Assembly (NCBI GenBank): GCA_002441145.1
Contig: DJVK01000006.1
Span: forward strand, 41 to 64,040
DNA: 64,000 nt
DNA from: Candidatus Saccharibacteria bacterium UBA6258
Lineage (GTDB): Bacteria > Patescibacteriota > Saccharimonadia > Saccharimonadales > Saccharimonadaceae
Direction of reading: 5' to 3'
A program made the position numbers and the translations under genes. Below, in pieces: positions 389 through 58,654 of the stretch (position 1 is its first letter; every line of letters starts with the position of its first letter). The notes beneath the pieces were generated by a model. The model searched no databases. It was not told where the DNA came from and saw only the letters and a list, made by a program, of their open reading frames with translations.

Positions 389-445
389 GGATCGAACCCG
401 TCGCGGTTCGCTAATGCCCGGCAACTTGTTGCGACGGCGCATTAT
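389..445. repeat. 57-nt structured element, copy 1 (paralog at 57578-57634)
   Basis: 53/57 identical to copy 2 by manual alignment. Internal hairpin GCAA-CTTG-TTGC. Enclosing pairing CCGTC...GACGG. Confidence 0.8.
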
Positions 446-8888: not shown

Positions 8889-9884
8889 TTGGCTAAATTG
8901 CACGGTGTAAATTTAGGTGGCTGGCTGATTTTAGAAAAATGGATGACGCCAAAGCTATTTGCCGGTACAAAAGCGACCGACGAATACACCTTTATGCAAA
9001 CGCCGAGCGCACGCGACAAACTACGCGAGCATCAACGCAACTTCATCCGCGAAGAAGACTTTAAGTGGATGAGTAACAATGGCGTCAATGCCGTGCGAAT
9101 CCCGGTTGGCTACTGGGTATTTGATGGCGATACACCGTACGTGTCGTGTATCGGCAAACTTGATTGGGCATTTGCTATGGCCGAAAAATATAACATCCAA
9201 GTACTTATAAGTTTGCATGGCGCGCCAGGTTCGCAAAATGGGCGGGATCATAGCGGACGAATAGGTAAGGCCGAGTGGTACAAAAATCCTGCCGCACCCG
9301 AACAGACGATTGGCGTGCTTGAACGATTAGCGCATCGTTATCGCGACCACGTGATGTTTTGGGGTATCGAATTATTGAACGAGCCTAAAGCCGGACTGTT
9401 CCAACATAAGTTACGCAAGTTTTATAACCAGGCATATAAACGGTTAGCGCGAATTGTATTGCCTAGTACGCGAATCGTGTTCCATGACGCATTCACGCCA
9501 CGGTTACTATCTGCTGTCATTTGGGACGATAGCGTACATCATCCGGTGATGGATATACATTGGTATCATTTTGCATTTGGGTTACGACGGTTTCTACCGT
9601 TATGGTTATATTACCGAGTTGTCGATAGGCGCAAGTACTTGATTAGGCGACTGCAGCGTTGGCAGGGGATCATTATCGGGGAATGGAATGGTATTGTTGA
9701 CGGCAAGATTTTAGACAAATACCCAAAGGGTGAGCACGATCGCGTAGTGCGCGAGCACATCGCACGGCAGTTGCGTGCATACTCCGTTGCAGACGGTTGG
9801 TTTTACTGGAACTACAAAACCGAAGCGCGTGGCGTGTGGCATTTTAGATCAATGGTTGAGGACGGTGCTATCGTTTTGGACTAG
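8889..9884 (+). CDS. glycoside hydrolase family 5 (beta-glucanase-like), no obvious signal peptide
   Basis: LHGVNLGGWLILEKWMTP, ELLNEP (acid/base Glu) and IIGEWN (nucleophile Glu). The track ORF starts at 8841 inside the VIT gene. An in-frame TTG at 8889, just after the VIT stop and downstream of GGAGGA, is my preferred but uncertain start. Confidence 0.8.
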   Translation: MAKLHGVNLGGWLILEKWMTPKLFAGTKATDEYTFMQTPSARDKLREHQRNFIREEDFKWMSNNGVNAVRIPVGYWVFDGDTPYVSCIGKLDWAFAMAEKYNIQVLISLHGAPGSQNGRDHSGRIGKAEWYKNPAAPEQTIGVLERLAHRYRDHVMFWGIELLNEPKAGLFQHKLRKFYNQAYKRLARIVLPSTRIVFHDAFTPRLLSAVIWDDSVHHPVMDIHWYHFAFGLRRFLPLWLYYRVVDRRKYLIRRLQRWQGIIIGEWNGIVDGKILDKYPKGEHDRVVREHIARQLRAYSVADGWFYWNYKTEARGVWHFRSMVEDGAIVLD

Positions 9885-34159: not shown

Positions 34160-34280
34160 GGAAGCACATTGGCACGAGGGAACTCGAGAGCGAAATCTTT
34201 CGCGGGAACCACGAGCGGGAAATCAAAACGTTTCAATGAGCCTACCTTTAAATGTCGTACGAACGCCGAAATAAGCATCT
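34160..34280 (+). promoter_or_regulatory. structured 5' leader; candidate c-di-AMP (ydaO/yuaA-type) riboswitch
   Basis: Pseudo-repeated ACGAG(C)GGGAA(C/A) motifs (34173-34183, 34211-34224), GCGGGAACCA, and a 3' ACGCCGAAATAAGC. Sits upstream of a LysM/CHAP hydrolase. Matches the consensus from memory only partially. Confidence 0.35.
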
Positions 34281-34417
34281 TTTTATAATATTAATTAATA
34301 AAATCGGTCGACACGCGCGTTCTTTTCTCTAAACCGGAGAAGTAAGACAAAGTGAGGTAGTTATATCGCTAGTAATAGCGCTATAGGAGAAAGATTATTC
34401 GTAATCACCAACTTGCT

Positions 34418-48540: not shown

Positions 48541-48696
48541 AGTCCTCCTTACGGGGTAATCCGCGAATGAGTTCGCAGAGTTGATGGTTTATATGTTTTA
48601 TTCTTGATCGCTAGCGGTTCTGCTCGTCAGAACGTTTGCGAGTAGAGGAACCTGGCGGTTCATAGTATGTACAAGTATAAGGTATAATGGTTACAT

Positions 48697-56061: not shown

Positions 56062-56149
56062 GCGGTGGTGGCGGAATTGGTAGACGCGCTAGCTTGAGGG
56101 GCTAGTGGGCATTGCGCCCGTGGAGGTTCAAGTCCTCTTCACCGCACCA
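56062..56149 (+). tRNA. tRNA-Leu (anticodon GAG), long variable arm, CCA encoded
   Basis: Acceptor GCGGTGG/TCACCGC. Anticodon stem CTAGC/GCTAG with loop TTGAGGG. T-loop GGTTCAAGTCC. TATAAT at 56030-56035. Confidence 0.9.
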
Positions 56150-56160
56150 AAGAAACATCC
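56144..56160 (+). repeat. left copy of the direct repeat (tRNA-Leu-GAG 3' end)
   Basis: GCACCAAAGAAACATCC versus GCACCAAAGAAATAACC at 57245-57261 (15/17). Confidence 0.7.
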
Positions 56161-56483
56161 TTGGAGTGAGCGAGCTTAAAAAGCTCGTTGACCCCAGGGA
56201 TTTTTTCTATTTTCAATGGTTCCGCAATTGATTTCTGCGTAGCTTGGCGCCTAATCGAAGATTACGCCAAGTATCGGGCTCTTGGTATTGGACGACAGTG
56301 GTCAATAAGTAAATCTTTCATGTGTTCCACAAAGTATTTAAAGTATGTCAACAGATGCTCGACTGATCCTTATATTTCACTATGACGACCTCCATCATAA
56401 CCCCTGTAATTGACCTAAGCGGCTTATTATATTAGTATATTTAAGCCAGGGAGATACTCTGGCAGCTCATGTAAGGATTAGTG

Positions 56484-56834
56484 ATGAAGAATCTGAAGAA
56501 GAAAGTCATGGCGATCAGCGCCGCGGCCGTCTTGTCACTCGGCCTGTCCATGGCCGTCACCACTCCCGCCAACGCCTTCTCGACGATTGAGATGCACCAA
56601 GCGTGTCGACTCGACAACTTCGGCCACCATCAGGGTTCGATCCTCTGGACAGCCCAACTCACCTACCCGAGTCAGGGCGTGTACGGATGGCGCTGCTACT
56701 TCGACGACTCGCCGACAGCATGGTCGACCGCTCCGAAGTACGGCATGAAGGTTCAGCTCATCTGCGACTACATCTACGGAGGCTCCGCTCGGTTCACTAA
56801 CCAGAGCGACGCATACTCCTGGTACTGCGGCTGA
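56484..56834 (+). CDS. GC-rich small secreted protein with four Cys (116 aa precursor)
   Basis: AAGGA SD 6 nt before the ATG at 56484 (the track uses GTG 56481). Signal peptide ending TTPANA/FS. G/C-ending codons dominate. Confidence 0.75.
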   Translation: MKNLKKKVMAISAAAVLSLGLSMAVTTPANAFSTIEMHQACRLDNFGHHQGSILWTAQLTYPSQGVYGWRCYFDDSPTAWSTAPKYGMKVQLICDYIYGGSARFTNQSDAYSWYCG

Positions 56835-56848
56835 TCACATGAGCGCAA

Positions 56849-56874
56849 GCCCCGGTGTCGAAAGGCACCGGGGC
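56849..56874 (+). terminator. GC-rich hairpin terminator of the secreted-protein gene
   Basis: GCCCCGGTG-8 nt-CACCGGGGC. Confidence 0.6.
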
Positions 56875-56912
56875 GTCTCATATTTCATAATACTCATGCT
56901 ATAATTTGAAAT

Positions 56913-57197
56913 ATGAAAAGTAATTCCTCACAAAAACCGCAAATCAATACAAGTTCAACAGTTAGCTATATATTGCATGCAGTCTCCGTAGCAATGATTA
57001 TATTTTTAGTCTATAAGGTCAACTTATTAGAATATAGAGTTGAAACGATAAATAAAAAAGGAACTGAATTGAATATGCAGATGCTGCAGTTCAATGCACG
57101 CACAAATAACCTAAAAGGCTGCTGGCAAAATAACGACTACGAATGTCCGGAAAACAAATATTTTGACGGAAGTCGGTTTGTTGAAGGAAATAAATAG
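56913..57197 (+). CDS. AT-rich small membrane-anchored protein (94 aa)
   Basis: TATAAT 7 nt before the ATG. TM helix ILHAVSVAMIIFLVYKV. Cys pair CWQNNDYEC. Confidence 0.6.
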   Translation: MKSNSSQKPQINTSSTVSYILHAVSVAMIIFLVYKVNLLEYRVETINKKGTELNMQMLQFNARTNNLKGCWQNNDYECPENKYFDGSRFVEGNK

Positions 57198-57244
57198 ACC
57201 TTACCCGTTTGGGATAATCTGGTTCCACAATAGGTCGCAGAGGT

Positions 57245-57261
57245 GCACCAAAGAAATAACC
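57245..57261 (+). repeat. right copy of the tRNA-Leu(GAG) 3'-end repeat
   Basis: GCACCAAAGAAATAACC. Overlaps the left arm of the hairpin AGAAATAACC...GGTTATTTCT (57252-57286). Confidence 0.7.
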
Positions 57262-57437: not shown

Positions 57438-57523
57438 GCGCGGATGGCGGAATTGGTAGACGCGAGGGACTTAAAATCCCTTGACCAAAAGTCGTGCGGG
57501 TTCGATTCCCGCTCTGCGCACCA
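57438..57523 (+). tRNA. tRNA-Leu (anticodon UAA), CCA encoded
   Basis: GCGCGGA...TCTGCGC acceptor, anticodon stem AGGGA/TCCCT with loop CTTAAAA, a long variable arm, and T-loop GGTTCGATTCC. Confidence 0.9.
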
Positions 57524-57528
57524 ACGAA

Positions 57529-57564
57529 AATGTCGAGGCTTGTCCTCGGCTTTTTCGTTGGTAT
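57529..57564 (+). repeat. 36-nt direct repeat, copy 1 (contains the tRNA-Leu-UAA terminator hairpin)
   Basis: AATGTCGAGGCTTGTCCTCGGCTTTTTCGTTGGTAT, identical at 57665-57700. Confidence 0.85.
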
Positions 57565-57577
57565 CGACGTAGTCGAA

Positions 57578-57634
57578 GGATCGAACCCGTCGCGGTTCGC
57601 TAATGCCCGGCCATTTATGGCGACGGCGCATTAT
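57578..57634. repeat. 57-nt structured element, copy 2
   Basis: See copy 1 at 389-445. The hairpin here is GCCA-TTTA-TGGC. Confidence 0.8.
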
Positions 57635-57664
57635 GTGAAACCTTCCCGCTTCTAGTGATATTGG

Positions 57665-57700
57665 AATGTCGAGGCTTGTCCTCGGCTTTTTCGTTGGTAT
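57665..57700 (+). repeat. 36-nt direct repeat, copy 2
   Basis: Perfect duplicate of 57529-57564. Confidence 0.85.
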
Positions 57701-57784
57701 GACAACCGAGCTTCTGTCGAGTTTTTGTCACAAAATTGCTATACTAATAGATACTAACATTGACTACGAAGGAATCTACACTTG

Positions 57785-58654
57785 ATGCAACGTGCAATTG
57801 CTGAGAATAAGCGAAATACCGCGATTATCATGGCCGTATTTGTCGGAATAATAGGGGCCATTGGTTGGATTGTCGCCTCGATTAACGGTAATACTTCGAT
57901 GATGTACGGCATCATTGCCGCCGCTGGTGCGTATGCGTTCGCTCAATACTTTTTTGCCGACAAGCTTGCGCTGATGGCAACAGGCGCAAAGCCAATTACT
58001 CAGCAAGATAATCCTCGACTTTATGATATGATCGCCGATCTTGCAAGGCGCACGAATAGCCCTATGCCCAAGGTCTACATGATTGATGATCCAGCACCTA
58101 ACGCATTCGCCACAGGTCGCGACCCAAAGCATGCAGTTGTAGCAGCAACAACGGGCATTATGGAAGTAATGGACGACCGTCAACTTAAAGCGGTACTGGC
58201 GCACGAAATGGGGCATGTACGTAATTATGATATCCGCGTGATGATGATTGCGTTCGGGCTCGTGAGCGTCATTGGTATTCTTTCTGATTTTGCTTTGCGT
58301 ATGTTTATCTGGGGTCGCGATTCTGACGAAGAGGTCAACCCGCTTGCATTAGCAATCGGTGGCGTTCTGGTGGTAGCAGCGCCTTTTGTAGCGATGCTAA
58401 TCCAGCTTGCGATTAGTCGCCAGCGTGAATATCTGGCAGACGCTACGGGTGCCGAGACAACACACGATCCCGAGGGGTTGGCGCAAGCACTGCAAAAGTT
58501 GCTTGAATTTGGGCGCCCACTGCAGCGACAAAGCAGCACGACCGCACATCTATTCATATCTAACCCATTGCGCGCCGGAGTGGTCGCGAAACTATTTAGT
58601 ACGCACCCGCCATTAGAGTTGCGAATTGCGCGATTGCGCGGAGAGAGTAAATAA
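57785..58654 (+). CDS. htpX: zinc metalloprotease HtpX (M48)
   Basis: HEMGHVRNYD; TM helices. The track starts at TTG 57782; an ATG follows at 57785. Confidence 0.92.
   Translation: MQRAIAENKRNTAIIMAVFVGIIGAIGWIVASINGNTSMMYGIIAAAGAYAFAQYFFADKLALMATGAKPITQQDNPRLYDMIADLARRTNSPMPKVYMIDDPAPNAFATGRDPKHAVVAATTGIMEVMDDRQLKAVLAHEMGHVRNYDIRVMMIAFGLVSVIGILSDFALRMFIWGRDSDEEVNPLALAIGGVLVVAAPFVAMLIQLAISRQREYLADATGAETTHDPEGLAQALQKLLEFGRPLQRQSSTTAHLFISNPLRAGVVAKLFSTHPPLELRIARLRGESK

Follow-up and report, generated by a model that had tools for sequence, protein, structure and literature searches.

CIMEs (cis-mobilisable elements) are decayed elements that keep both attL and attR and at whose attR later elements accrete in tandem, next to the 3' end of the target gene, as in the Streptococcus ICESt1/ICESt3 family (PMC5704250). 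Islander-type islands occupy tRNA genes and leave a displaced tRNA 3' fragment (PMC4383910), and the tycheposons of Prochlorococcus form island arrays with partial tRNAs (bioRxiv 10.1101/2020.12.28.424599).

The unit described here, found after two tRNA genes of a Saccharibacterial genome, resembles a CIME in that it carries no integration or transfer genes and in that recombinase-bearing elements enter its distal att copy, giving tandems. However, it is ~137 bp long without remnant genes, whereas known CIMEs are kilobases long; also, it lies at tRNA genes of the CPR and contains a conserved structured palindrome. As in Islander-type islands and tycheposons, an intact tRNA and a displaced partial 3' copy mark the ends, older copies are pushed outward, partial tRNAs and degenerate elements are scattered nearby, and the cargo is rich in defence genes. 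The difference is that the unit has no integrase and that the recombinases of the hot spot are of the large serine type at the CCA end, whereas those of the described islands are mostly tyrosine integrases. Moreover, the unit is MITE-like in being small, gene-free, multi-copy, patchy and flanked by a target repeat, although its ends (the start of term1 and the linker/T2) share no inverted repeat, the repeat that flanks it consists of 8-19 nt from one particular tRNA end and not of a short duplication of fixed length, and there are very few copies (2 in 64 kb).

The genomes of Saccharibacteria are tiny, and few mobile elements have been recognised in them. Serine-recombinase elements and defence genes frequently land at the 3' end of tRNA-Glu and, in some lineages, at that of tRNA-Leu(UAA), and the site is marked by a conserved palindromic module that has had no annotation so far. 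If mobilisable, this module would rank with the smallest known integrative elements and would offer a way to follow gene flow in the CPR; if it is an RNA, it would be an undescribed family. The covariance model obtained in this analysis (R1) is usable for annotating the module under either reading.

Layout of the unit at two tRNA loci

An earlier sequence-only reading of the window (the whole stretch of 64,000 nucleotides analysed here) had located two copies of a 57-nt element at 389-445 and 57578-57634, and both are present there on the + strand, with 53/57 positions identical. There is no mismatch over the first 33 nt, a match of which none is expected by chance (100 shuffles), and a repeat finder pairs 389-459 with 57578-57648. 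As had been observed, all four differences fall within one small hairpin, GCAAC-TT-GTTGC versus GCCAT-TT-ATGGC, with pairing kept; the one compensatory pair already recognised stands, whereas the two changes formerly assigned to the loop are, with a 2-nt centre, one more compensatory change. The copies are not immediately 3' of the tRNA genes, as had been proposed, each being 54 nt past the CCA end, from which a 36-nt terminator hairpin and then a second, small hairpin separate it.

The 57-mer is the conserved core of a larger gene-free unit of ~137 nt (~135-145 bp), whose parts follow the same order at both loci: tRNA CCA end, term1, hp, core, linker and T2. T2 is a second copy of the last 8-19 nt of the tRNA, starting in the T-loop, and the T1-to-T2 period is 137 nt at both loci of the window. 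The features are the following.

260-334, + strand: tRNA-Glu(UUC), target of unit 1 (ARAGORN; Rfam tRNA, 63.1 bits)
316-332, + strand: T1 of unit 1, ATTCCCGGTGAGATCAC, from the T-loop end to the first C of CCA, 17/17 identical to 453-469
335-370, no strand assigned: term1 of unit 1, a 16-bp hairpin preceded by an A-tract and followed by a T-tract, which by its fold resembles a two-way terminator
373-386, no strand assigned: hp of unit 1, GCGCA-TTTC-TGCGC, conserved in structure and not in sequence
389-445, + strand: core copy 1, with P1 at 393-410 (left arm an inverted T-arm motif) and P2, a three-part hairpin, at 412-444
446-452, + strand: linker of unit 1, variable, 6-9 nt among homologues
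453-469, + strand: T2 of unit 1, the second tRNA-Glu 3' end, 137 nt past T1
499-536, + strand: two decayed tRNA-Glu 3'-end-like pieces, GATTCCCTGATTAATGA (499-515) and TTATTCCTGGTGAATTCC (519-536), both weak matches
57438-57523, + strand: tRNA-Leu(UAA), target of unit 2 (ARAGORN, Rfam)
57506-57564, + strand: T1 of unit 2 (TTCCCGCT, 57506-57513), acceptor 3' strand with CCA, and term1 (57529-57564)
57565-57575, no strand assigned: hp of unit 2, CGAC-GTA-GTCG
57578-57634, + strand: core copy 2, with P1 at 57582-57599 and P2 at 57601-57633
57635-57642, + strand: linker of unit 2
57643-57700, + strand: T2 of unit 2 (TTCCCGCT, 57643-57650), a scrambled 14-nt acceptor segment (57651-57664) and an exact second terminator (57665-57700)

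The flanking duplications reported in the earlier reading are thus real, at 316-332/453-469 for the tRNA-Glu end and at 57529-57564/57665-57700 for the 36-nt terminator. In unit 2, the spacing inside the second copy, from T2 to the terminator, equals that of the first, the period being the same 137 nt. Since T2 copies the last 8-19 nt of the tRNA, the unit is bracketed by direct tRNA 3'-end repeats in the manner of attL and attR, and both loci of the window show the intact tRNA and displaced direct repeat of its 3' end that define a tRNA-integrated architecture. The pieces at 499-515 and 519-536 may be older displaced tRNA-Glu ends, as far as such weak matches suggest. The term1 of locus 2 is recognised as a terminator on both strands, and among homologues term1 keeps the same architecture with a different sequence in every one; likewise, a 4-7 bp hairpin occupies the position of hp in every homologue, the sequences being unrelated. 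No ORF is found in the 137-bp interior, and tblastn with two serine recombinases gives nothing over the window.

An island spanning the whole window, with the two 57-mers as its attL and attR, is rejected because the offset between core and adjacent tRNA is the same at both loci, each core being part of a local 137-nt unit. A fixed 81-nt ruler measured from the T-arm is also rejected, the distance from CCA to core being 65-74 nt in homologues.

ARAGORN detects only four real tRNAs in the window and no tRNA-like fold over the core on either strand. Neither core copy is matched by any family of Rfam 15 on either strand, even at E<=10, and cmscan of 1-700 at E<=10 gives nothing on 389-445 on either strand, so that the check proposed in the earlier reading yields no clean match to a known RNA family or to a tRNA pseudogene. 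The inability to fold either copy into a cloverleaf agrees with ARAGORN and with the Rfam tRNA model on both strands, and a tRNA or tmRNA fragment is rejected because neither program reports a tRNA-like fold at the core. The T-arm-like motif described earlier holds as an 11-nt inverted T-arm motif, and does not extend to the core as a whole being a tRNA or pseudogene. The covariance model scores 86.3 bits on copy 1 and 80.9 bits on copy 2.

Copies in related genomes

A first search pattern, ATCGAACC-N7-GGTTCGCTAATGC, gave no matches in the genome and metagenome collections because it was too specific to the A...T variant of the window. A second pattern, relaxed at one position that is substituted in L084, returned 23 metagenome loci. 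The full unit architecture is present in 15 of them, from other Saccharimonadia and with nine distinct core sequences, and the remaining eight are rejected as chance matches in high-GC coding DNA. The further copies that had been called for exist, and on these 15 contigs all of them follow tRNA-Glu or, in L092 and L095, tRNA-Leu(UAA). Eleven distinct cores align well, the apparent conservation of the 20-mer used as search pattern being inflated by the way in which the homologues were found. Beyond these, searches with nhmmer and the covariance model yield only one more full copy, the second in L096, and, in L090 and L109, second copies that are degenerate, and the covariance-model search for more diverged copies gave nothing new. 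Viral contigs gave no matches or only chance ones, and phage records only chance ones.

Among the homologues, the period is 134-145 nt and the exact T1/T2 repeat reaches 19 nt, being 16-19 nt in L089, L094, L103, L107 and L109, and 10 nt at the Leu locus of L092. The closest HtpX relative, of a sister species, is 85% identical, and the Logan contigs that carry it all break just upstream of htpX. L084, from this sister species, starts inside the element and has two substitutions in it. The sister species has lost, at its Leu locus, the second terminator, T2 and the right half of the core; thus, the unit is not essential.

Every short-read contig from the sister species or from a second sample of the species of the window (L084-L087 and L002) has its break 54-114 nt upstream of htpX. 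These breaks, inside or beside the unit, fit the unit or its terminator being repeated in those genomes.

The unit as an insertion

In L097, 134 nt lie between TCACCA and the terminator, whereas in L113, L152 and L154-157 the orthologous terminator follows the tRNA directly, the response regulators of filled and empty loci being 95-96% identical. This comparison shows the unit to be an insertion relative to the empty sites of close relatives, and the filled (L097) and empty (L113, L152, L154-157) sites correspond to what is expected of a tRNA-integrated element. The unit is absent from all of the 48 response-regulator/tRNA-Glu loci and from at least 20 tRNA-Leu(UAA)/htpX loci collected independently of it, and no copy occurs in 80 HtpX-syntenic loci.

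Across lineages the cores are 77-95% identical and the flanks 38-59%, which is near random. L094 and L109, which are 96-97% identical genome-wide, have an identical core with differing term1 and hp. Within the window, the two cores are 93% alike and their flanks 55%, whereas the unit at the Leu locus compared with its L092 orthologue has flanks 82% identical and a core of only 80%. This argues that the cores of the window have been homogenised within the genome, and gene conversion or copying between tRNA loci would keep the two alike.

The tRNA 3' end as an integration hot spot

Mapped junctions show that the tRNA 3' end (TCACCA) is a hot spot and crossover point for large-serine-recombinase elements and defence islands. 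Close relatives have at least five different continuations that split exactly after GGTCACCA, and TCACCA is common to all mapped junctions. The recombinases found there combine Resolvase and Recombinase domains, being of the large serine type, and are accompanied by Replic_Relax, FtsK/SpoIIIE and DUF3768 genes. Upstream of the unit, the true tRNA end has taken up islands in L110, L090, L093 and at the right end of the L096 element; T2 of the unit has done so in L107 and at the left end of the L096 element. The serine-recombinase elements of L107 and L096 begin right after the ...TCACCA of T2, which corresponds to the accretion expected of a CIME. These positions show that both the real tRNA end and the second copy carried by the unit receive new elements.

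The recombinase ORFs cross the junction, extending 40 nt antisense into tRNA-Glu in L123 (7635-9347) and L135 (4690-6408). In L107 and L096 they run through T2 into the core and stop at a TAG in the P2 tip, with the shared tail ...MVILPGILRYIAPL; the C-terminus of the recombinase would then differ between the integrated and the excised form. A coding constraint on the core from these ORFs is rejected because indels in the linker break the frame and because the shared tail is found in one species only.

The defence-type cargo after tRNA-Glu varies by strain (L115 10645-14399; L158 7064-10032; L110 5492-9481; L107 and L096). It includes Gabija-type Pfam domains (OLD-like/AAA_15 and UvrD helicase), Hachiman-type ones (HamA and helicase) and a NACHT-type NTPase. 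By reading of the proteins, we assign a putative NPPY methyltransferase motif to the 1012-aa cargo protein of L107, and the 634-aa one of L096 is presumably ATPase-like.

Some serine-recombinase elements carry a second, different tRNA-Glu(CUC) in inverted orientation (L133 12535-12609; L135 9755-9829). The core as a decayed inverted tRNA-Glu of this type is rejected, the similarity being limited to the T-arm.

Folding and covariation of the core

Two helices find support in the alignment of the cores: P1, formed by CGAACC/GGTTCG, and P2, formed by TAWTGC/GCAWTA, CCG/CGG and a variable tip. The longer-range CCGTC...GACGG pairing suggested earlier does not hold on the alignment of 13 homologues, where no compensatory pair is seen and two of its five pairs are broken in about half, and it is rejected. 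In the two-helix alignment, the paired cells amount to 94%, both partners have changed in six pairs, and the covariation score is reached in none of 500 shuffles. The added copies keep pairing by compensatory changes, as the covariation check of the sequence-only reading had asked, and the A...T variant that the window has at one P2 pair is itself compensatory relative to all other lineages. This shows that two palindromes able to form hairpins persist in the core by way of compensatory changes.

Several observations refer to the level at which this constraint acts. In 11 full copies, 213/220 pairs are Watson-Crick, and G-U and A-C combinations are equal in number (nine each), with no strand bias. 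Fold energies are similar on the + and - strands and lie below those of shuffled sequences on both (z of -1.1 to -2.3 for the core and of -3.3 to -4.2 with its flanks). The innermost covarying pair adjoins a 2-nt TT centre, a pair that an RNA hairpin could not form. The Watson-Crick pairs, the equal G-U and A-C counts, the similar energies of both strands, the 2-nt centre and the lack of a promoter favour a constraint on a DNA palindrome over a strand-specific RNA.

P2, a ~36-bp imperfect palindrome with a non-palindromic TT centre, presumably has the size and form of an attB/attP of the phiC31 or Bxb1 type. It differs from the sites of large serine recombinases in that the length of its centre varies (2, 3 or 4 nt), and no element is split at the central dinucleotide of P2, all mapped junctions being at TCACCA. 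The second unit of L109, conserved on the left and diverged on the right, is only suggestive of a split at the palindrome.

Other types of site were compared by eye. In integron attC sites, the RYYYAAC and GTTRRRY boxes stand at the base of an imperfect palindrome. An attC site is rejected, CAAC/GTTG being at the hairpin tip instead of the base and off the consensus, and dif and IS200/IS605-type sites are a poor fit.

A proposed CIME-like gene-free module

We give about an even chance to the reading of the unit as a minimal gene-free integrative module, CIME-like, in a hot spot at tRNA 3' ends, the core being a DNA palindrome that acts in cis. The module would be an integrative element stripped of all its genes with both attachment sites kept, and in some Saccharimonadia it sits behind tRNA-Glu and tRNA-Leu(UAA) genes, at their 3' end. 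The core, probably a DNA palindrome needed in cis, would act at the DNA level as a palindromic site for a putative recombinase or accessory protein in recombination or mobilisation. The miniature insertion element considered in the sequence-only reading agrees with the direct repeats, the presence and absence of the unit and the hot spot, whereas its derivation from a tRNA applies only to the inverted T-arm motif and to the downstream copy of the tRNA 3' end.

Some points count against a CIME-like module. No parent element, with the core beside its own recombinase gene, was found among the homologues, and the interior of the unit holds no recombinase gene, as a tRNA-integrated element would. 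Also, the serine-recombinase elements have other sequences at their right ends, and the TCACCA crossover is 26-83 bp from the core, which is outside a canonical serine-recombinase site of ~50 bp. A circle of 137 bp is very small for excision, and neither an excised nor a circular form was seen. Moreover, conserved bulges and hairpin tips that range from 1 to 13 nt would suit a folded single strand better than a classic duplex binding site.

It is possible, although on balance doubtful, that the units represent a new family of ~137-bp non-autonomous elements that would move between Glu and Leu tRNA genes by recognition of a folded palindrome and would be mobilised in trans by the recombinases of the islands, or else a new horizontally spread structured RNA carried on such a mini-element.

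Alternative explanations

An unlikely alternative is that the core is a small structured RNA, either transcribed from the minus strand (starting near the linker/T2 and ending at the two-way terminator that it would share with the tRNA), or an extension made by read-through of the tRNA, or the cargo of a mini-module. Compensatory changes in both hairpins, bulges that are conserved and tips that vary would suit an RNA, as would fold energies below shuffles on both strands, a term1 with A- and T-tracts that at locus 2 is a terminator on both strands, and a -10-like TATATT/TATAAT conserved on the minus strand. However, this motif, noticed earlier as TATAAT, is conserved as a -10-like sequence and does not amount to a promoter, having no -35 partner: a consensus scan (sigma-70-type) calls no promoter on either strand at either locus, and no fixed -35 is possible within T2 because the linker varies by 3 nt in length. 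The absent G-U strand bias, the similar + and - energies, the 2-nt loop left by the innermost covarying pair, the lack of an Rfam family even at E<=10 and the deletion of the right half of the core in the sister species also stand against an RNA. Of the traits of a small RNA gene running from promoter to terminator, the two-way terminator is present, whereas the promoter and a G-U excess are absent, and the ~100-nt convergent small RNA of the sequence-only reading receives no positive support. Nor is the core a cis-regulator of a specific gene, since the downstream genes differ between the loci.

Somewhat more improbable is that the host keeps the unit as a feature of the hot spot, T2 serving as a second landing pad and the two-way terminator shielding the tRNA gene from incoming elements and recombinase transcripts, with the core as a putative host-protein site. 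The landings at T2 (L107, left end of L096), the two-way term1 and the recombinase ORFs that otherwise enter the tRNA gene by 40 nt (L123, L135) are consistent with such a role. On the other hand, the real tRNA end, upstream of the unit, also takes up islands (L110, L090, L093 and the L096 right end), the unit is absent from most relatives, close ones included, and partly deleted in the sister species, and there is no known candidate for the host protein.

A neutral remnant without present function (an inverted tRNA gene in decay or the scar of an old att site, the window copies being alike through recent duplication) is very improbable and is largely refuted by conservation and covariation: although P1 has an inverted T-arm motif as its left arm (11/11 in numerous copies) and the loci are rich in decayed tRNA-end fragments, ARAGORN and Rfam find no tRNA-like fold on either strand, the cores exceed the flanks in identity across lineages (77-95% versus 38-59%), and neutral decay would not preserve pairing through compensatory changes.

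Neighbouring islands and other observations

The window corresponds to the ENA contig k141_950172 (L083), with 100% identity from 253 on and a wholly different sequence upstream, the break being 7 nt before tRNA-Glu. Positions 1-252 contain the 5' half of a degenerate tRNA-Glu (85-99 and 202-222), whose D-loop is split by a hairpin-rich insert of ~100 nt, and their counterpart in L083 (8565-9657) holds a high-GC ORF at 9035-9537.

Near the other locus, tRNA-Leu(GAG) (56062-56149) is followed by an insert of ~1.1 kb (56125-57256) with a high-GC ORF at 56481-56834, whose hydrophobic N-terminus suggests a secreted protein. The insert ends with a degenerate second copy of the tRNA-Leu(GAG) 3' end and GCACCAAAGAAA (57221-57256), and thus forms one more small island with a tRNA 3' repeat as its boundary. 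The gap between tRNA-Leu(GAG) and tRNA-Cys is only ~80 nt in L003, L008 and L013, and ~600-700 nt in others. The ORFs of small islands at tRNA sites (L083 9035-9537; those downstream in L110 and L097; 56481-56834 of the window) have a GC content far above the Saccharibacterial background, which hints at acquisition from high-GC genomes, possibly those of actinobacterial hosts.

In at least two relatives, L003 and L008, an ORF of 185-188 aa, which from its translation we take to be lemA, lies between tRNA-Leu(UAA) and htpX, and several other loci have the same spacing of ~690 nt. The window (57524-57785), the sister species and L092 are without the lemA-like ORF and have the unit or a remnant of it there instead.

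A second type of module is present in L124 (7676-7900), L109 (206-300 as oriented) and L094, with a two-way terminator, a small hairpin and the palindrome GAACCnGGAGGGTTCG, and without P2; in L124 a tRNA-end-like ATTCCCGGTGA is found farther on. Finally, two RNAs in the window mark its lineage as Saccharibacterial, a lysM-TM7 RNA at 34240-34389 (117.8 bits) and an MDR-NUDIX RNA at 48608-48666 (77.6 bits).
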